This document shows, piece by piece, positions 39,257-57,844 of a stretch of 64,000 nucleotides of DNA. The DNA comes from Chrysemys picta bellii (Eukaryota). The notes below the pieces were generated by a model, which did no database searches, was not told where the DNA came from, and saw only the letters and a list, made by a program, of their open reading frames with translations. The first letter of the stretch is position 1. Each line of letters opens with the position of its first letter. The stretch is from positions 34,038,001 to 34,102,000 of the forward strand of contig NC_088797.1 in NCBI RefSeq assembly GCF_011386835.1, read 5' to 3'. Made by a program: the position numbers and the translations under genes.

Positions 39257-40586
39257 TCACAGCTTCCTGTAAGCCCCCACGGTGAGGTCAAAAAGCTGTG
39301 GGTTGTAAACCTGGCCCTGCTTGTCCAGAAGGAAGTAAAAGGGCCGACCCTTAACCTTGAGGGGAATCATGGCAGGCACCTCAGAACGATGAGCCATGCA
39401 GGAGACCTGGCGCAGGGGCACAGTGAAAGACGAGCTCAGCCCGAAGGGATAGTAGGTGCTGAGGGTCACATCCCGTCCCCCCTGGCGCAGCACGACCTGC
39501 CACACTGAGCGGCGTGAATACACAAAGCCGGCAGCCACGATCAGTGAACCTGGGGTGGGGAGAAAGAGAGAAAATGAAATCCCCAGATGCCATCCACCAT
39601 ACCCAGACTGGGCTAGCAGGGGGCTGTGGGTTGGGAGGGACTAGCAAAACTGGGGCGGGGGAGGGAGCCCAAGGCTGGATACCCAGGGGCTGCAGATTAG
39701 AACTGAGGGACATCAGCAAGGCTCGGGGTGCAACCACCCCATCTCCCAGCACCAGGATTTAGCTCTGAGTTTCAGAAGCCTGATTCCACTCAGCTGCTCC
39801 AGGTGGCGGTAGCCCAGGCCCAGCTGTGGGGCAGAACCAGGCTCTGATCCCAGATCCCTCTTCCCCAGGGCAATGAACTGGACTCAGATCCAGGCAGCTC
39901 CTAGGCACAGCTCCCTGTCACCGGCCACCCACCCTAGGGTGGGCTCCCTCCTCTGTGGAGAGAGAGTTCCGGGGGAGGGCGTAATCCCATTACCAGTGTC
40001 TTCGGTTCATGCTTCCCCAAGGCTTATCCCTCCCCCACTTCCCCAGGATGCAAGGACTGGAATCACCAGTTCCCCCTGCCTGAGTGCTGACATAGAGGGA
40101 GGGAGGGACTCCCCTGGCCCCCAACCCCCTCTCTCCCCGGGGCCTGCTCCCGGCTCGGGTGCCCCCGCCGCCGCCGCCGCCGCCCGGGGGCCGCTCCCGG
40201 CTCTCACCTACGGTCAGACAGGACACGGTGAATCCGTAGCGCCACTTGTTGGAGGTCGGGTTGATCGAGGCCCCGCCGGGCAAGGTGGGCGCGAGCCGGG
40301 CGCTGGCCGCGGGCCGCCCTGCGGGCCGCAGCTCGCTGAAGGCGAAGTGCGCCAGGTACGCCCAGAACGTGAACTGCCCCGTGCAGAACAGCCCGAGCAA
40401 GCGGAAGAAGCGGGCCCGCTCGTGCCGGAACAGCAGCAGGTCCCGGGGCACGTGCGTGTCCAGGGGGGACAATCCGCGCGCCGGGCCCGCTAAACCCCGC
40501 GCACCGCTGAGCCGGGCCCAGGGGCCCCACACCCTCCACGTGCAGCAGTGCAGTCCCCACAGCCCCAGCTGCCCGGTCCCCGCCAT
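39257..40586 (-). CDS. TMEM223: Transmembrane protein 223 (223 aa, 2 exons)
   Basis: Exons 40586-40208 and 39549-39257 (672 nt). RDLLLFRHERARFFRLLGLFCTGQFTFW...KWRYGFTVSCLTVG and VRQVSCMAHRSEVPAMIPLKVKGRPFYFLLDKQG match TMEM223; directly downstream of NXF1, as in human. Confidence 0.92.
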
Positions 40587-40944: not shown

Positions 40945-41916
40945 GAACACGCAGGTCCCAGCACATACAGCCACAGAGAAACAGAGGGCAATGGTGCCCA
41001 GCTCTGGCCTGCAACATTCTGCTTCAGCCCGAAGACTTGGGGGGGGGGGGGGTGTCCACAACACAGATGTACAAGCAGGAAGGGTGAAGCTAGGGTCTTT
41101 CCCCCATGGGTGCAAGGAAACCCCTGGTGCCTGCTACTCCAGTGCTGCCCAGGCATCTAGGAATCTTGCAGCCCCACCCTCTGCCCCTAGCTCTAGGGTA
41201 GGGAATAAGGGAGTGTAGCCAATGACAACCCCATTGCTCCTTAGCTGAGAACACTAACCGTTCCAGATCCCACACAACCCCACAATCCCATCAGCACCTT
41301 AAGGGAAGCTTGTCATCTTCCTGGAGCTGCGCTCTATTTACCCACGCAGCAGCTACTACAATAGACCTGCCAAAACCTGGCAGGTGCTCTGCCCATCTCA
41401 CTCTCAGCATGGCTGAGGCATGTTCTCAAGGAGACAGCTCCAGGGCTTTTAGGGCTGCCTTTCCCCAGAGAGGAATGCAAGTCTATGGGGGGGGGGGGGT
41501 ACACGCTGGGGGATATGAACACCACAGGGTTGAAGTCTGAGGGCAACTTAGCTCATCTGCTAGGAAAGGGCAGGGGCTGTGAGCGGTACACCTAGCCCAG
41601 CTCACTGAAGCCACTCATAGGACTGCTTGTTTTAAAACATACCAAAAAAAGTCATTTTCCCCCTCCAGGCCAAAAACCTGAGGGGAAGGATTCTGGCTCT
41701 GTGCTTGAAGCTTCTGGGTGCCCCAGCAACATCTGCTTCTCAGTCTTGCTTCTGCTGCTGCTAGAAATGGCTGGAGCTGGAGGCAGGGCAGCATGGACAA
41801 GACTGTCTGTATCACCCCCAGCTCCATTGGCCTGCTGCAGGGGCTCCCCCTTCAGAGTTTAGGCCCCCTGGTTGCTCCCAGCGATGAGCCCCCACCTTTG
41901 TTATTTTAAACTTTCA

Positions 41917-41922
41917 TTTATT
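41917..41922 (-). terminator. Proximal AATAAA of NXF1
   Basis: Plus-strand TTTATT about 60 nt past the stop codon. Confidence 0.6.
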
Positions 41923-41980
41923 TACAAAAATTGTCATGGAAAATAAAACATCAGTGGTAGGGGAACTGCAGGGTAACTGC

Positions 41981-44900
41981 TCACTTGAGAAATGCCACGT
42001 CTGGGATCTTCCCCTCCGTCTGAAAGAGACCAGGAACCAGTCACAGGGACTCTGGGCATTGCAACGCCCCCATCGCCCAGGGAAAGGCTGCATAGAACCC
42101 CTGCATCCTGGCTCCAAGCCCCTCACCAATTTATTAGACACCACTCCCCTCCCAGAGGCAGGGATAGTGTCGACATAGGAGTCCTGACTCCTAGCGCAGT
42201 GCCTTCTCCACAAGACTGTCCTTTCTTGTGCCTATGAGGTGCTTTGAAGCAGAGAATGATGGAACCAGGCCCCCTGAGGAAGGCAGTCCCAGGAAAGAAG
42301 ATCCTTGTGGGGATAGGGAGAGGTCAAGGCATCCAAGGTGGCTCCTGGCCCCATCCCACCCTCAATCTCTGGGCACTGAGGCCGCTGGTGGGGAATGAAC
42401 ATGCCCCTGGCTCCTCCCCTCCACCTCTCTGGTGCAGGATTGTGAGAGACCCCAGGCCCCTGGGATAGAGTCAGGCCCAGGCACTGGCTCACCTTGAGCT
42501 GGGTGAAAACCTGGGCTGCCTGGCTGTAGTCCCAGTCGTTGTCCTGGAGGCACCTAGGGCAGAGGGACACTGTCAGTGAGCAAGTGATAGGCCATGGGGC
42601 AGCACCAACCCTCCCCACAACCTTCCCCAGGGCCTACTTACTTTTGGGACCACTCGACGTTCATGCCAGACTGCATGGCGAAGGCCTGTAGCATTTCCTG
42701 CTGCTCGGCCGACAGCGTGGGCACAGGGCTGGACGAGGGCGTGGGTGCTGGCATCACGAAGGCCTTGCGGATCTCCTCTGTGTTCGCTTTGCGCACAAAC
42801 AGCTGGTCGTTCACGATGCACAGCCTGGGGGTGTGTGGAGAGTGAGGCACGGGGGGATGCTCATCCATTCCCTCCCCCAGAGCCAAGGAGATACCATTGC
42901 CCCTCCCCCTGCAATCTCCCCTTCCCCCACTTACCCTGTGATGCCAGCTGGCACAGCAATGAACATGCGGGTGAAGCCTCTCACCATATCCCGGGACTTG
43001 CCATCCACTGCACACACAGAGAACAGAGCCCAGTGAGGGGGGTATGGGGAAAGGGGTCCGCCAGAGGGTATGGGGTCTTAGCAGGGAGGCGCTTGGAAAT
43101 GGAGGGTAGGGGGCTTCTGGACACTCACCTTCCTTGAAGACCCCATGGACAGCAAAGCACAGCAGGGTGTTCTGCAATATGAGAGGGGATGTCACTGAAC
43201 TGCCACCCCCTCACCATGCCCATGGCCCAACGGCTTCTGCCTCCCATTGCCTGACCACTCCCCTTCTGTCCCCCACGAGCACTCTCTCCCCTCACCTCAC
43301 AGCGCAGCCCGCCCTGCCCCCGAGGTGGGGGCATTTTTTCCCACCTCACAGTAGAGCCCGCCATGCCCCCAAGGTGAGGGCATTTTCCCCCACCCCTCAA
43401 CCCCCCTGTCACAGCACAGCCCACCCGGCCCCTGGGATAGAGGCACTCACCGTCTGTGCACAAACATCCACCACAAAGGAGTTAACGTCATGCTGAGTCT
43501 TGGGCAACTCATTGAGGAAGGCCACCACGTTCAGCCTCGTATGCTTGAGCAATTTGAAGCGCAGGGCTGGAGGGAGGAGCGGGAGGTGAGATCCCACCCA
43601 GCCTGACAACCCAGTCACAGCACCACAATCTCAAGTCTGCCCTGCACAGAAACCCAGACCTGAGTCTGCAGAGAGCCTGAGCTGATCACTGCAAGGGGGA
43701 AGTGCTGTTTTGAGTGTGATCGATGCAGCCCCGTGGCACTTACTAGGGTCCTTGAGTTTCTTCACATTCCTGCTGCCCTTGAAGTATTCACTCAGGATGC
43801 TCCTGTTGAGAAGAGATGCCCGGTGAGTAGCTGGGGGACAGTACCCTGGAGCTTCTGCCCCATCAGCCCCACAGGGAAATGCAATGGAAACCTTCCTCCT
43901 TTACCTGGCTCTTAGATTCTCTCTGATCTTCGCAAATGGGAACAGAGGCAGCCTCACCCTACTGGGCAAGGGAGAGGTGAGCCCCATTTAACAGAGTGGG
44001 GAAGGGAATTGCCTGAGGGGGCACTGAGTTGGGGTCGAGCCAGAAACAGAACCCAGCCCCCCTGCTCTAGCCAGAAGACACCACTCACCTCCAAGAGCAG
44101 GTGATAGTACCCAAGAATCCTGATTCCCAGCCCCCCACTCCCATAGACCTCACAGCCCTCCTGTGCCAGGGATAGAACTCAGGCGTTCGCGTTCTCAGCC
44201 CTATGGTCCCTAAGGAGGGCAGTGACTAACCCCTGGTGGACATACCTGGAGGGGTTCTGGGAGAGGAAAGGGATGCTGAGGGAACAGCAGGCCCCATCGT
44301 GGTAGGCATCCAGCAGCCCCTGCCTGTCGCCAGAATCATATACAGAGTAATACCTGCCAGGGAGAGAGCGTGTTAGCAAAGAGCAGCTGTGCTGCTAGGA
44401 CAGTGGCTTCACTATCCCTGCCCCAGAGCTCTCCCCACACCTCAATATCCTGTGCCCCCTGCCTGTGAGACTGGAACAACGTGATCTATATGCCCCCTCC
44501 CCATCCATCCCCATCTAGCTCCCTAAATGACTCATCCTCCCACGTCAAGGTACTTACTGCTGCAGGAAGCGCAGCACCAGCACCTTCAGGTCATCCGAGC
44601 CGAAGTAGCTGCCCTGTGGGTCAGAGAATGTGCCAGTTAGTGCCCTGGCTCGGAGCCCTTTCCCCCAAACCCCTGCCCCAGGGCTTACCCTGCTGGCAGA
44701 GCAGTTAGTGCCCTGGCTCACAGTCCATCCCCTCTCCACACCCCAAGAATGCCTTCCCCAGTCCGGCACCAGGGCCAATCCTGCTGGCAGAGTGATTAAT
44801 GTCCTAAATCAAAGTCCCCCACTCCCTGGCCCCTTTACCTTGCAGGGGGGGAGGGTGGTGGGCGTTTCCACGTCAAAGACAATAGGAGGTGGGAGCTCGT

Positions 44901-47900
44901 GGCCGTCCTGCAGAGAGGCAAAGGTAGAGCAGTGAGCAGAGAGTGCCCCAGCAGTGGGTTCTGAACAGGACAGCCCCAGGTTAGTGCAAAACACTCACCA
45001 GGCGCAGAAGCTTCGGGAACCGCAGTCGTATGGAGCTGTCAAAAATGGGACATGAATCAGTGGGGCCAGCCAGGGCCCAGCCTGACTCCCATGGGGCCTC
45101 CTTCCCTCCCTGACCCCACCACTCTGGGCCTACCCCACATGCCCTTGGCACTGACTCTGCAGGCCACAGAACGGGGCTGCCCCTGTGCCCACCACACTCC
45201 CCCTTCCCCAATGCAGCACCCCATCTCACCCCAGCAGGGCAGGGACCCAGCGCTGAGCAGCTGGGTGGCAGGGACAGAGCAGATATCCCTCCTGCCTTAG
45301 TGAAGAATCTTGGGGCAAGAGACCAGGGCTTTACTACATCTGCTCCCTCCATATCTTGGAGCCTTGGCCAATTTACAGGCCCAGAAATGCTATGGGGCTA
45401 GTGCCGCATGGCTGAAGGGCTCCACACTTACCTGGCTCTTACTCACCTATGCGGCTATTCTCCAGTGAGGAGAGAGTGGGGGTGGGGAGGGGAAGACAAG
45501 GGCAGGATGGCAGGGGGATAGGACATGGATTCCCACAGATCATGGAGCCGCCGTCATTGCAACCAACTTACAGCTGGGGGAAGCTTCCTGCATCAAGGCC
45601 CAGATCTAATTAATGTCCACGCCATGGCACACGGGGCAGGGATGACAGAGGAGAGGGATGCAATGGCACAGAGAAAAGGAGGACAGAACAGGAGGAAAGA
45701 GGGATCTGGGAGCCCAGGAGCAGAGCCTCTTCCTCCCCTAGATGGCTCCTCACACCTACCCCAGACGCATTGGTGCTGCAGAGGTTCGAGAGAGACTCAC
45801 TCTGGGAGAACACAGCATTCTGGTCAATGGAAAGCCCGGGCCTCCTGCTCCTACTCCTGCTCAGAGCCAGTCCTAGCCATGCCTGCTGCCATGGCAGGAC
45901 CTGGGGCCGCTGATGGGCTTGTGTGCAGCTGCTCACCGAGAGCATGAGAGAACAACGTAGCATGTGCCAGGCCCTTACACCAGGAAGGACCCCTCTGCGC
46001 TGACCGCCGTGCGGTCTGGTTTGGCCACTGCACGGCTGTGCCTGTCTTAGGTTGTTCCTTCCGTGAGGAATCTTACCCGTCTCTGGCTAGCCAGCCATTG
46101 TTGAGGGCCAAACAGGGGGCGCAGGGACTGGCAATAACAGCAGCTCCGGGAGTGTTTGGTTCAGAGCGATATGGGGGGCAGCCCCCTAAACATCCATCAG
46201 GGGGCAGAGACAACAAGCCCCTCCTGTGTGCGACTGGGGAGACCAGGTGGCGACAGTGGCTCTCCCATGGCCAGTGTGGGAACAGGGATACTAGAAGAGG
46301 CTATGCATCCTGGAGTCCCAGTGCCCAGGCTGAGGGAGGAGGAATGGGAAGAGAGGGGGAGAGGAAAGCAGTGTAGAGGCAGAGTCTAGCTGTTACTTTA
46401 GGGGAGTAGAGTGCATTGTGGGGAAAGGGGACAGGGCTCCGAACTGGCTGAAATAGAAACCACATCATCAGCCGTGCAGCACTCAGGTCCCATGCGCCCC
46501 TGGGGGCCCCAGTGCCCCAGCCCCAGAGAGGGATGCGGGGAGACAAACACCATCAGTGGGGCCACTGCAAGAGGGGCTGGGATCCAGCTCCCGGCAAGGA
46601 GCTGGCATCTTCGTTCCGCTGCATTGCCCCGCACTGGGCAGGAGAGGCCAAGTGATTGGGGCCAGGCGATCCACGGGCCCCAGAGGCTGCCACTGACCTG
46701 ACATAGCTGGACTGGTCCCGGAAATTGTTGCACAGAGGGTTTCCATCCAACCACAACTCCTCCAGCTTAAGCCCCTTCACCTTGTCCAGCTCGCACTCAG
46801 ACTTCAGCTGTGGCAGGGAAAAAGAGCAGAGGGGCAGACCATGAGTGCAAGGCCACGGAGGGGTGGCCGTCGGACCGGGGATGGTGGCAGCGCCTACCTC
46901 ATTGCGGGTCAGATTGAGGATCTTGAGATTGGTGGCTTTCTGGGCCAGCTCCGCCAGGTCATCCAGCTGGTACAGCTTGTTGCTGGTGAGATTCAGTGAG
47001 AGCAGCTGCAATTGCAGAGTGGACAGAGGGTCAGAGGAGAATCCAAGACAGAACTACCCATCCCCAGCAGGGTGGCATGGCGCTGAGCGCCCAGACCGAG
47101 GTTCCAGGATGCCCCCCCTCCACCCCCACCCCTACCCCTCACCTCCGGGATGTTCTCTTCAATGATTTGCAGCACAGCCTGCATGCAGTTCCGCCGGTTC
47201 AGCACCACATCAATGTTCTGTGCCACCAGGTCTGGAAGAGACGCACAAGCTGAGCACCCCACACCATGGCCCCACCCGCTCCCTCAACATCCCTTCCTCG
47301 ATACCAGCCCCCCACACCTGCCAGGAAAACACGCACCTGGGTCCGTGCGAAGGTTCTTCAAGTCCAGGGACTGCTGGGACCCGTCATATCTCTTACTCAT
47401 GGTGAGCTGAAAGCACAGAGACCATGGGTCAGAGGGGACTGGTCTGCAAAACCCAGCAGTGGAGGGCCTGGGGCAGGCAGGCAGGTCCCTTGCTTGGCTT
47501 CCCTGGGTGCCATGGGATGGAGTCCTGGGGAAGTTTTGCCCAGGCCCACTGCGGTGTAACAAGCTCCTCTCCCCTACACCCCACCCCAATATGCACCAGG
47601 AGCCCCCCAATCAGGAAATAGTGCCCCATTTTCTAGAGAGCTCCCCGAGCTGGGTGCGGGCTTGAAGCACCTCCCCCTGGGCCTCCCCTGCAGAGCCCAG
47701 TGGGGGCACAACAGAGCTACCCTGCACCACTCACCTTCAGCTGCTCAATCTCCTCCGGCTTCAGCTCCTTCTGGACAGACTGGGGTGGAGATGAGTGGTT
47801 GACAATTAGCACCACCTGGAACAGAGGCAAGCTGGGTCACAGAGGGGCAAGAGCCAACACTGGGCAGGAAGCCCATGTCAGGGTACTGGGGGACAGATGG

Positions 47901-50460
47901 AGGGGGTGCCACAGAGGGGGCCCATGCAGTGCAGAGAGGTGTCTGTCAGGCTATGTGAGGACCGGACACAGGACATGTTCCCATGCTAATCCTGCCAGAA
48001 GAGCAGAGACCTGGCCAGGCCCAAGGGGCTCCCAGAGAAAGGAAGGCACAAGGCCAGCTCTAGGCATTACATCGCTCCTTCACCCATGGGGGTCTTTCCA
48101 GCCAGGTGCTAAACACAGAATGGCCCGGGGGAGGGGGAATCATACCTTGTAATTGTCTCGATCTGTGATCTTGCGGGACAGCTGCTTGAGCGCATTGGCT
48201 GTCGTCATATCCTCAATATAGAAGTAGGCCCGGCTTTGGTCGTAGTGGAACTGAGGGAAGAAGACAAGCAAGTTAGGGAGCCCTGGTATCCCCGCCCTGT
48301 CAGGAAGAACCTGGCTGAGCTACGCCTGCCTACAGGCATTCCCATCCCCGCAGCTCCACTGGGGAAGCTGAGGCACAGGGAGGAGGACTGACTCACCCAA
48401 GCCTGCATAGCAAGTCTGTACCAGAACCAGGAAGAGCGCCCAGAAGTCTAGCCTGACTACTAGTGCCCCCCTGCTGCAACCACTAGACTCCACACTTCCC
48501 TCCCAGAATTAGGAATTGAAACCAGGAGTCCTGACTCCCAGACTCCCCTCCCTTTCCAAGAAACGGGTATAGATCCCAGGAGTCCTGACTCTGTCTCCCT
48601 GCTCACAGCTTGCATGACATCTCAGTGCAGCTCTCACCTCCACTGGAGTAAAAGGGACACTGGACAAGTTCTGGAGGGAGCTCAGAAGCCATGACTTGTC
48701 ATACTTCTTTCCATAGGGAATCTAGGAAAAAAAGACACTTGTAAGTAGCATGTCAGTAAGCCGGCAGCAAACTATGGGTCTGGGAGCTAGGGAGGTCTCA
48801 GGGAGCAGCCCTGCTCCTAGGAACCAGGAGCATCAACCAGTGAACAACAAGGTCCTTCCCCCTGCCCAGGGAGCTGCCTGCCGGTCAGACACTTGGCAGC
48901 CAGGCTGGACATTATGCCCCCTTCAGAAACTGAGTCAGAGGGGCAGGACGGCAAGGTGACCTGCAAGGGATGTGCCCTGGGTTACCAGGATGTGCCAGGG
49001 CTGTGGGGTAGGGGCTTGGCCAAATTCCCTGTTCCCTCCCTCACCCTCCAGCACTCACTGTGACCTTGTACCACCTCCTCCGGCTGCTGTTGCGGCTGGC
49101 ACTGCTACTCCGGTCCTGGGGAGTGAGGTCTCGTTTCACTGTGACATGGATGTTGGTGGCACCTCCCCGGCCCCGGTTATGCCAGTCATCGCCTCGCCTG
49201 TTCAGCCGTGACCCATAGGGAGTGCTGGGAAGCGGAGGGACACGAGCGCTTAGCATTAAAGACAGGGGGGATATCTTGAAAGCTAAAGGGACCCAGAAAT
49301 ACCTGATTGAACCCTGTGGTCATCGCTGCATTAGAATAAAATCTCTGCAGCAGCCGCCAGACACAGAGGCCCTATTTATCCCCAGCACAGGAACAGTGCA
49401 GCTTTCCCCTGCTCCCCAATCAAGAGCTGGAGTGGAGCTGGTGCCCCCTGGAGAGGAAAGGCCCCAGATCCCATTCCCTGCCTCCCTGAGCCAACCAGTT
49501 CCCTCACCTTGGGGCCGGACTGAAACAGGCATCCCATAGAAGGCATCCCCCCACCCTGAGCCATTCCATCACACACAATGTCCAACAACACCTCTCACTC
49601 ACTATCTGGTTCGAAGACTATCATGGGCGTCGCTCATGGGAACATCTCCGTCGCCCTCCTCCAGCTGACCAGAAGGGCTGGGACCTGCTACACCTCGGTT
49701 CCACGAGCGGTGGTTCCCCTCACTGTACATCTTGCCTCGGAACGGACCCCGACCTTTCCTCCTCCTCCCAGCGAAGCCCCCACCTGCACTGCCCACACGG
49801 TCATCATGTTCTGTGCAGAGGAGCAGAAGGAGTATCAGACACCATCCAGCGACTTCCCTCTTTGAATGCTTGACACATGGGAAACTGCCCACACTAAACC
49901 CCTAACCCTCCTGAGCCTTTGGGTCTGCATCAGTAGAGATGAGAAAATGCATCAGGCCCTGTCGCTTCCACCCCTTTCCCAGTCCATTCCGCAGGGCTCA
50001 CAGCACACCCCCCCACACACACCACTGCACCCATCCCCCCAGAGCCCCTCATCACCCTGCCCTCCCCCCACGCTGGGCTGGGAGATAGGGAAGACAGCCC
50101 CCAGCCAGCATCCCCTCCGCAGGCCCACCCCCGAGACTGGCACAGGCCCCCCAGAACCCACCCCCAAAGCCCCGCCCTCAAACCCTCTCCCCTCCAGACC
50201 CCAAAGGCCCCGCCCCCTCAGAGGCCCCTCCACAAGCCCCGCCCTCCAACCTTCTCACCTCCAGACCCCAAAGGCGCCACACACCCCCAGCGACCTCCAC
50301 AAGCCCCGCCCTCAAACCCTCTCCCCACCCGACCCCAAAGCTCCGCCCCCCCAAACACCACCCCCAAGAGCTCCCAAAGGCCTCAGCCACAGCCCCCTCG
50401 CCCGCCCGCGTCACCCAGCCCCCCCTCACCGCTGTACCCCCCTTTCCCTTCCTCCGCCAT
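41981..50460 (-). CDS. NXF1: Nuclear RNA export factor 1 / TAP (631 aa, 21 exons)
   Basis: Exons 50460-50430, 49810-49603, 49224-49059, 48721-48638, 48250-48146, 47815-47735, 47406-47337, 47231-47143, 47005-46898, 46807-46698 (110 nt), 45035-44999 (37 nt), 44907-44839, 44613-44558, 44353-44246, 43802-43744, 43566-43451, 43171-43129, 43007-42935, 42824-42642, 42553-42493, 42019-41981; 1896 nt open. RRM, LRR, NTF2-like and UBA ([29 protein letters not shown]) domains. Confidence 0.97.
46019..46113 (-). promoter_or_regulatory. Constitutive transport element (CTE) RNA hairpin in NXF1 intron 10
   Basis: Sense RNA reads GACGGGUAAGA-UUCCUCACGGAAGGAAC-AACCUAAGACAGG; the two flanking motifs match the recalled MPMV/SRV CTE internal-loop core. 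Outer stems AUGGCUG/CAGCCGU and GUUUGGCC/GGCCAAAC close the hairpin. Confidence 0.9.
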
Positions 50461-54949: not shown

Positions 54950-57844
54950 TCAGGCCAGGAACACCACAAAGATGATGAAAAAGACGATGAGGATGAGGAA
55001 GATCTTGACCATGAGCCAGCGGTTGGAGGTAACTGACTGGAAGTATTTGAGGATCTCGGAATGCGCGGCCTCCACATTCAGCTGGGCGTCCTCCACGTTG
55101 GCATCAATCCTGTGGTGGGGAGAGGGGAAACAATTGACTGATGGGGCCTCTGGACTCCCCCACCACCAGGCCTAGCCCCAGAGGATGAGCTCCAGGCTCT
55201 GGGTGTGACAGAGATTAAGCTTGCCCCCAGGGCCAACGTGGGTGAGTTACAGATGGCCACTGTTCTGTGTGGGGAACTGGTTCCAAGCCTCAGGAATGGG
55301 GGATGAGCCCCCCACTAGGGCTGCAGGGAAGGGAGCAGGAAGCTGTCCAGCCATGCCTATGAAGTTGGTACCTCTGGATGGTCTCCTCTTGCTCTTTCAC
55401 CATGTGCGCCAGCTGCTGGAAGATGGAGCCCAGCTCCACAATGGTGGATTCAATGTTCTGCATGGTGTCCGCCCGGCTCTGGATATACGAATCCTATAGA
55501 GGGGAAGGGGAGTCAGTGCCTGGGGCAGCCCTCATCCCCCCCCATCCTGTCTCTGGAACAGTCCTCCCCATTTCCCCGCACCAGCACCTGTTCGTCAATC
55601 AGCTGCAGCTGCTGGCTCGTCCGGTTGTCCATGTCAATGGCCACGTCCCCCGCCCGCCGTGGTTCATCCTGCAGCATCGCGGAGCCACCTGCAGAGAGAA
55701 GCCAGTGCAGTCAGGGCTGTCAGAGACTGGGGAGCCCCGCAGCCAAGCTCCAGGCCTCCAGACTCCAGGCTCCCAGAGGAGGAAGGCCAGCCCTGCCTCC
55801 ACACAGGAAGTTACCTACTGGTCTCCCTTCCCTAGAAGATGACACCTATGCCCCCCTCAGGGTGCGCCAGCCCCCTCCCCCAAGCATTCTCCCAAGACAA
55901 GGGACTCTGGACTCACCCAGGTTGCTGGCAGTAAGGGGCATCGGGGTGCGGGAGAAGTGCTCACGCCGGCTCCGCTGTTGCTTCAGGTTCTAGGGGAGCA
56001 AGGAGAGATCGGAGCTGGGGTTAGATGGGGGCAGGCAAGGTCTCGGCATGCTAGTTCTCCCATGGAGGGAGGGGAACAGGGGACGCACTCAGATCTTACC
56101 TCTGTTCTCACCTCCAGCACTGACTTGAAGTCATTGGACATTGAGGCCAGTTTGGACTGAAAGGGAGGAAGTGAAAGGTCAAAAGGCAACTGGGAGCAGG
56201 GCCCTGACTCAACTATACCCACCCCAGCTCAAAACCACAGCCCCCTCCACAATCCATTCCCCCTCCACCGGCTCAGAGCCACCCCATTTCCCTCATCAGC
56301 TGCGAACGCCGCCCATTCCCATGCCTGTCTCTAGCAGATCTACTCCCCCTCACCTGCAGCGACACCACAATGGTGTTGGAGTGGGTCTGCACGTGCCGCC
56401 CGCTCTGGCTGCCCTTGGCCCGCACGAAGTCCTGCAGCTGGGCAATCTGCTTGTTCAGGCTGTTGATGTCCTGGGGGAGGGAAATTGGTCCACTCTCAGT
56501 TGAGGCCCACACCCCAACCCGATCCCAGCTGCCCTTTGGCTCCCACCCAGCTGGGGCTGCTGTTCACAGGGCCTTTCGTTCCTGCCCACCCCACCTCCCA
56601 AATAAAGAGGCCATCTCTGTCTCAGCCACCAGGAGATGCAAGCCTAGATCCTTCTAACCTGTTTGATGATGTACGTCAGCTCCTCTATCTCCACCGCCTT
56701 GTCGTCAAACAGGGACTTCCGCTTGGCCACTGGGGACAGAGAGGCGGTTCAAGGGGTGTCCTATGTGAGGCCAACTCACCTGGCAGGCAGTGGGGCGGGG
56801 GACAGCCCCAAGGCCAGCTCATAGGAGTCTCGGCTTATTCCCTCCACCACAAGTGCCCTGCTTTATCATGGCCCCCAGGATCAGAGCTAACAGCCCCTCA
56901 CACATGCAGGTGCAGCACCCATTACCCTCCCTCGCTGCTCCTCAGCGGCCCCATAGCCCATTCCAGCTGAGTGAGACAAGTCTGTGTCTCCTGTTCACAG
57001 TGGCTATAAAGAGGCGAGAAGCCATGTTAACCCCCAGTGCCATCAGCAGCCCTTCCATGTGTGAGCCCACACCCCCAGGCAGCCCCCTCCTACTCTCCCT
57101 CTCCCCCCACTCACAGATGGTCAGCTTCTCCAGCTTGGCAAAGGTGTTGCTGAGATCTTTCCCGATGCGCCTGGATGGAGGCAGAACAGGAGACCAGAGT
57201 TCAGGGTGGGGTAGGGTCTGTGCTCCCCTAGTTGGGGCCTGCTCACTAAACACACCAGCAGGGCACTCCCTCCTTACCCCAGCCCTGACCTCCAGGACAA
57301 CCCCCTCTCACCCCCATTCTAGGCCAGGCAGCCTGTCTCACCATCCCACAAGATTCCTTCCTTGCTCATTGATCCTGAGCCAGCACCACATACTCCCGGT
57401 TAACCAGCTGCTCAGCCCCCTCCCCAAGCCTTGGCTGACCCAGCCCTAGTCCAAGACCAGGTCGCTCCAGCCCCACTCACTTGGCTATGACGGTGAATTC
57501 GCTCCTCTGGCGCATGGCGTTCAGAGCGGGTTTGTTCAGCTGCAGCCCATTCTGAAAGGAGAAAGAGAGACTGAACTCAGGTGTTCTGGGGCTGAGCGTC
57601 TCCCATACTAGCAAGGAGTGGGCCTGATGCCCCACAGGAAACGAGGTCTCACCTGTCTGCTCTGCAAGGACTTGCAGGCGGAGAGGAACTCCTGGGTGCG
57701 ATCGCGACACGACATGGTGTCTGGGAATGACAGGGAGGAGGCGACAGTGGTGGCAGCAGGCGGGGGCAGCTCCTGTATCTGCGAAGGTCCCAGATAAACG
57801 CCCTGATCCGTGTTCTTAGAGCCGTGGCGTTTTCTCGTATTCAT
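54950..57844 (-). CDS. STX5: Syntaxin-5 (long isoform 339 aa; short isoform 296 aa from the ATG at 57715)
   Basis: Coding exons 57844-57653, 57551-57481, 57170-57115, 56729-56659, 56470-56354, 56156-56100, 55989-55917, 55688-55588, 55493-55372, 55109-54950; 1020 nt. MNTRKRHGSKNTDQGVYLG, MSCRDRTQEF, SNARE motif and C-terminal TM helix (LIVFFIIFVVFLA). Confidence 0.96.

Follow-up and report, generated by a model that had tools for sequence, protein, structure and literature searches.

A hairpin in intron 10 of the turtle (Chrysemys picta bellii) NXF1 gene (46019..46113, minus strand) is, judging by its sequence and position, almost certainly the turtle orthologue of the single-loop CTE described from the same intron in other vertebrates, and it probably allows NXF1 to bind and export its own intron-10-retaining mRNA. 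Positions refer to the window, that is, the whole 64-kb stretch of DNA analyzed, and the genes and CTE features within it lie on the minus strand. An initial annotation made from the sequence had proposed a CTE hairpin in NXF1 intron 10 of a reptile, and this proposal was supported by the gene model, by a match of 24 to 25 of 27 letters around the loop, and by a canonical predicted fold. The available portion of the report by Wang, Rekosh and Hammarskjold (2015; PMC4338338) describes an NXF1 intron-10 CTE in 36 mammals, zebrafish, and coelacanth and states that neither birds nor reptiles yielded one by BLAST. A literature search, with most subscription journals outside its scope, turned up no description of such an element in a turtle or any other reptile. 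Papers on the conserved cassette of 110-nt exon, intron, and 37-nt exon may include reptiles.

The turtle NXF1 coding region (41981..50460) was modeled as 21 exons. The model gave an open frame of 631 amino acids, with GT-AG boundaries at 20 of 20 introns. The CTE-bearing intron is numbered 10 because this 21-exon model places it so. It is a GT-AG intron of 1,662 nt (45036..46697), longer than any of the other 19 coding-region introns (the runner-up has 619 nt), and it is located between exon 10 of 110 nt (46698..46807) and exon 11 of 37 nt (44999..45035), the same boundaries as those given by the initial annotation. The exon preceding intron 10 matched the NXF1 protein of PDB entry 3rw6. An NXF1 exon used as a query had a single match in the turtle genome. 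Identities of an NXF1 exon were 97 to 100% with four clusters of turtle proteins, 93% with alligator, and at most 90% with birds; the model protein was 97.7 to 98.2% identical to two sea-turtle clusters and 81% identical to alligator. Domain matches identified a SNARE-domain exon upstream of NXF1 (54953-55120) and an exon of the TMEM70/186/223 family downstream (40212-40586); the human gene order is STX5-NXF1-TMEM223.

Folding of the minus-strand 95-mer from 46113 to 46019, which the initial annotation had put forward as a check, gave -33.1 kcal/mol (z = -2.5; equaled by 2 of 200 shuffles) and recovered a 6x6 internal loop closed by canonical stems. None of 33 tiles of 95 nt placed along intron 10 in 48-nt steps fell below a z score of -1.7. 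The fold score by itself is modest, and the excess over chance comes from the sequence match. The predicted structure comprised an outer stem (46098-46092 with 46038-46032; mean pair probability, 0.79 to 0.92 in contexts of 95 to 1,662 nt) and a core (46040..46087), within which the loop was flanked by a 3-bp lower stem (46087-46085 with 46042-46040) and a 4-bp upper stem (46078-46075 with 46052-46049), followed by an apical stem (46072-46066 with 46059-46054). In each of five sequence contexts, the largest being the full intron, and at both 37 and 28°C, pair probabilities of the canonical core stems were 0.64 to 1.0, and both loop strands were unpaired with probabilities of 0.88 to 0.94. The 5' strand of the loop (46079..46084) showed one to three differences from the four viral CTE halves used for comparison, and the 3' strand (46043..46048), identical in all four, is the NXF1-binding hexamer named in the available portion of PMC4174252. 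The CTE lies at intron offset 617 of 1,662 and thus closer to the 5' than to the 3' splice site. Beside the loop is a 5' splice-site-like sequence (46071..46077), with its donor at intron offset 622. The two motifs singled out by the initial annotation each occurred once in the 64-kb window (starts at 46081 and 46053). No Rfam family reached its gathering score for the CTE region.

The viral halves were obtained by scanning viral contigs with both motifs, which identified two loci on two contigs (L002 and L003) with two tandem halves each; both are presumed, from their arrangement, to be type-D viruses. At 27 anchored columns, the turtle element matched the four halves at 25, 25, 25, and 24 positions, and the 25 letters that it shares with the viral halves would be expected by chance about 3e-9 times per window (a rough estimate that treats letters as independent). 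Overall identity between the intron-10 element and the viral halves was 64 to 69%. The loop and its stems were homologous in primary sequence to the MPMV-type CTE, and the initial annotation had likened the core to the NXF1-binding loop of the MPMV CTE. The covariation that it had suggested looking for was not seen: six core pairs were invariant across the compared cores and, because they never vary, provide no covariation support. A covariation score of 0.418 over five cores was reached by 0 of 500 shuffles but is not counted as strong because the rows are few and related and the structure was borrowed from one of them; the two-sided change in these cores stems mostly from the viral rows.

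As far as the available portion of PMC4338338 describes the vertebrate NXF1 CTE, the turtle element shares with it the gene, the intron number, the position nearer the 5' splice site, the single loop, the donor-like site, and an early intronic stop, a likeness by position, spacing, and described features. The loop strands of the human CTE are given there as nt 32 to 37 and 68 to 73, in an element likewise nearer the 5' splice site, and the 36-nt spacing of the strand starts is the same as that in the turtle (46084 and 46048). The same portion presents the donor-like site beside the loop as a conserved CTE feature, raises a possible role of U1, and reports that both retention and reporter function were demonstrated for the zebrafish CTE. 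With the two-loop CTE of type-D viruses (MPMV type), the turtle element shares the loop strands, the flanking stems, and the anchored letters of each half. The viral CTE, however, consists of two tandem halves that form one long hairpin in a retroviral genome, whereas the turtle element has one loop, shows no tandem duplication, has a different apical stem, and resides in a host intron. The term "retroviral-type" in the initial annotation is thus appropriate to the likeness and not to the origin, which the available portion of PMC4338338 argues to be cellular, with uptake by a retrovirus and duplication later in the virus. The gamma-CTE of gammaretroviral pol, as described in the available portion of PMC4174252, contains the same hexamer in a loop but was found by folding and motif, lies inside pol, and is active only as four to eight copies; no wider homology is claimed for it in that portion.

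A 12-nt perfect palindrome (46083..46094) overlaps the element, as the initial annotation had reported, but the alternative fold suggested for it did not hold up. Forcing the local palindrome hairpin costs 4.9 kcal/mol, and its closing pair has a probability of ≤0.001. The palindrome was judged incidental, and it is most unlikely to act as a two-state switch or as a dimerization site mimicking the two-loop viral CTE. Such a role would draw on the presence of a 12-nt palindrome in just 1.6% of 2,000 shuffled 95-mers, a palindrome self-duplex of -23.2 kcal/mol, a predicted 95-mer dimer lying 10.9 kcal/mol below two monomers, and the two-fold platform that NXF1:NXT1 forms according to the available portion of PMC4330390. 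Against it, the window contains 28 palindromes of this length (18.5 ± 4.4 in shuffled sequence), none of the eight other CTEs compared (the four viral halves and four ERV-like copies) has the palindrome, most of it is buried in two stems, and the predicted dimer is possible for any hairpin.

Intron-10 retention was examined in 24 public sequencing runs, ranked by holding the stretch, with 220 sampled words of 44850-47010. The share of words present was 0.86 to 0.89 in 14 of the 24 runs (five studies; these are guessed to be RNA, no RNA label being on record), 0.97 to 1.00 in four large runs, and next to none in six. Predicted shares were 0.884 (0.84 to 0.92) for retention of intron 10 only, 0.94 for retention of one further intron, 1.0 for DNA, and 0.09 for spliced mRNA, with a maximum of 0.21 for any form without intron 10. 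The word shares indicate that a stable fraction of the transcripts likely keeps intron 10 and no other intron. Read contigs with the spliced joints of introns 11 to 20 were present in three of four runs examined, and these runs are therefore transcripts; the exon 10-11 junction also appeared as a loose end in three of the four. Run X6 lacked the main spliced contig. No read contig covered 45036-46000 in the four runs (41800-46000 examined), a gap that is uninformative because the records are filtered. Spliced and intron-10-retaining forms both seem to exist.

Read-through translation of the retained intron encountered an in-frame stop at 46553..46555, 143 nt into intron 10 and upstream of ten junctions. 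The predicted short NXF1 protein has 398 amino acids, with a 48-residue intron-coded tail and without the NTF2-like or UBA domain. The mammalian short NXF1, in the available portion of PMC5170612, differs in having 356 amino acids and an 18-aa tail, and the stop does not prevent its transcript from being exported and translated. By analogy, turtle NXF1 would bind the CTE in its own intron-10-retaining mRNA, the bound protein would export that mRNA, and the exported mRNA would be either translated to the stop at 46555, yielding the short protein, or degraded. Production of the short protein or decay of the mRNA could then feed back on NXF1 output.

A true orthologue could alternatively act mainly in the nucleus, where NXF1, or U1 snRNP bound to the donor-like site beside the loop, would hold back intron-10 splicing and the transcript would be detained or degraded. 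This is unlikely, although several observations are in keeping with it: the word shares do not distinguish nuclear from cytoplasmic RNA, the early stop with ten downstream junctions makes the transcript a decay substrate, and the donor-like site for which PMC4338338, in its available portion, raises a role of U1 is present. Charge loss at two contact residues of the turtle protein (positions 279 and 307) would also favor it. The NXF1-binding loop strand, however, is unchanged, and the export and translation of the mammalian counterpart likewise argue for the export function preferred here.

The 20 CTE-contact residues of NXF1 given in the available portion of PMC4330390 were compared in an alignment of the window model with 75 of 120 homologues (560 to 700 aa; 76 rows in human numbering). 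By this contact list, the mammalian residue was found at 15 of 20 positions in the turtle and at 13 of 20 in zebrafish NXF1, a protein that works on CTEs. The five differing turtle contacts were R128K and R276K, both conservative and common, N156Q, R279Q, and R307C. R279Q was confined to five turtle rows (R or K in 70 of 76), and R307C was found in the window model and in two clusters from sea turtles (three rows; R in 68 of 76); the window segments concerned are 46898-47005 and 46698-46807. Both changes remove positive charge from the LRR contact face, distinguish the turtle from the other vertebrate NXF1 CTE systems, and may weaken CTE binding. The statement of the initial annotation that the autoregulatory loop is intact in this reptile lineage goes beyond what was shown, with these two charges lost.

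These substitutions would favor the reading that the element is a vestige no longer recognized by turtle NXF1, as would a fold z score of just -2.5 in an intron in which no tile fell below -1.7. That reading is nevertheless very unlikely. The loop and stems still match the distant viral halves at 24 to 25 of 27 columns, and decay has affected three of the four copies that ERVs carry in this genome, a difference that points to continued selection on the intron core. Turtle NXF1 has also kept R249. Every one of the 12 bird rows carried Q at this position, and among the remaining 64 rows of the 76 the residue was R, K, or H. Q249 is reportedly tied to lost CTE support in quail, and R249 reportedly matters for CTE support (Coburn et al. 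2001). A literature search for the quail Tap result returned nothing relevant.

The first ERV-borne copy was found by pattern and folding. A DNA search of the genome with the element recovered only the element itself and missed the ERV-like copies, and a loose CTE pattern gave 22 matches in the turtle's own genome versus 103 for a reversed control and was therefore at chance level. Among 12 nonwindow matches folded with their flanks, the CTE fold was seen only at C2:289.9 Mb; nine others were judged by eye. The copy at C2:289925262-289925316 (minus strand; about 4963-5017 of L013) is a second full single-loop CTE, with seven of seven core pairs and a fold exactly like that of the intron core, and a 3' loop strand without differences, the 5' strand differing at one position; its apical stem contains a compensated pair and an additional pair. 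The 5 kb upstream of it showed no pol domain, and the purine tract present at the other copies was absent. No NXF paralogue was found near it by tblastn (30 kb), and no NXF Pfam family was detected in 102 segments. About 13 kb upstream of this copy, a weak exonuclease/endonuclease/phosphatase match (E = 0.005; L015:8311-9261, minus strand) was noted, possibly a neutral sphingomyelinase-like gene.

Three further copies are decayed, with four of seven core pairs at C2:235.84 Mb (L021/L045), seven of seven at C12:57.75 Mb (L024/L046), and six of seven at C2:241.51 Mb (L040/L047). Together, the four CTE-bearing copies represent an old, dispersed, env-bearing retrovirus-like family. In the three decayed copies, an env-like hydrophobic frame (recognized by eye) was followed at its end by the CTE, a purine tract, and an LTR-like unit, in that order. 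The purine tract was 14 to 23 nt long (three of four copies), and the LTR-like unit started just past it. At all 17 of the other loci tested, this unit occurred alone, as solo LTRs do. Upstream of the CTE at C2:241.51 Mb, broken matches to reverse transcriptase (RT; E = 6.5e-5) and RNase H (E = 4.6e-12) and a weak match to integrase (E = 0.035) were detected. Compared with solved structures, the RT piece was closest to foamy-virus Pol (7.6e-12; best MLV-type RT, 5.3e-8). A homologue search with the RNase H piece returned none at an E value of 1e-10, and comparison of the env-like piece with PDB returned nothing meaningful. In a survey of env-like and LTR-like loci, 3 of 19 were CTE positive; the 16 without a CTE within about 1.5 kb were six env-like copies, nine LTR-like matches, and another single locus. 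Distant env-like matches without a nearby CTE (66 to 68% over 200 to 350 nt, or short 84% pieces) were located at C6:23.3 Mb (L053) and at C7:39.8, 40.1, 40.2, 58.9, and 59.1 Mb (L062, L056, L067, L058, and L055).

Identities of the four ERV-like copies were 68 to 77% with the intron-10 element, compared with 53 to 65% with the viral halves. Because the full copy at C2:289.9 Mb resembles the intron-10 element (77%) more than the viral halves (60 to 64%), and because the RT of another copy is closest to foamy-virus Pol, sequence comparison suggests that the ERV-borne single-loop CTE was picked up from the host, independently of the type-D viruses. The arrangement of the copies is that expected of a nonbetaretrovirus that took a single-loop CTE from its host. 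Virus-to-virus transfer may instead have been the source, and a turtle as the donor is unproven. There is about an even chance that the NXF1 CTE was captured repeatedly by retroviruses, that an ancient turtle element, with an RT closest to foamy-virus Pol and unlike that of a betaretrovirus, took the unduplicated single-loop form from its host and holds it between env and the 3' LTR, where simian type-D viruses have the doubled CTE, and that Q249 in birds may mark loss of the circuit.

The turtle CTE is a new reptile member of the NXF1 intron-10 CTEs and fills a gap in the 2015 survey of mammals, zebrafish, and coelacanth. Given this CTE and the signs of intron-10 retention, the gap between fish and mammals is due to sampling, at least for turtles. 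A bird-specific loss of both the element and R249 becomes a testable idea, and the turtle changes at positions 279 and 307 represent a natural test of which contacts are needed for CTE binding. The single-loop copies carried by ERVs bear on the passage of CTEs from cells to viruses and on how often it has occurred.
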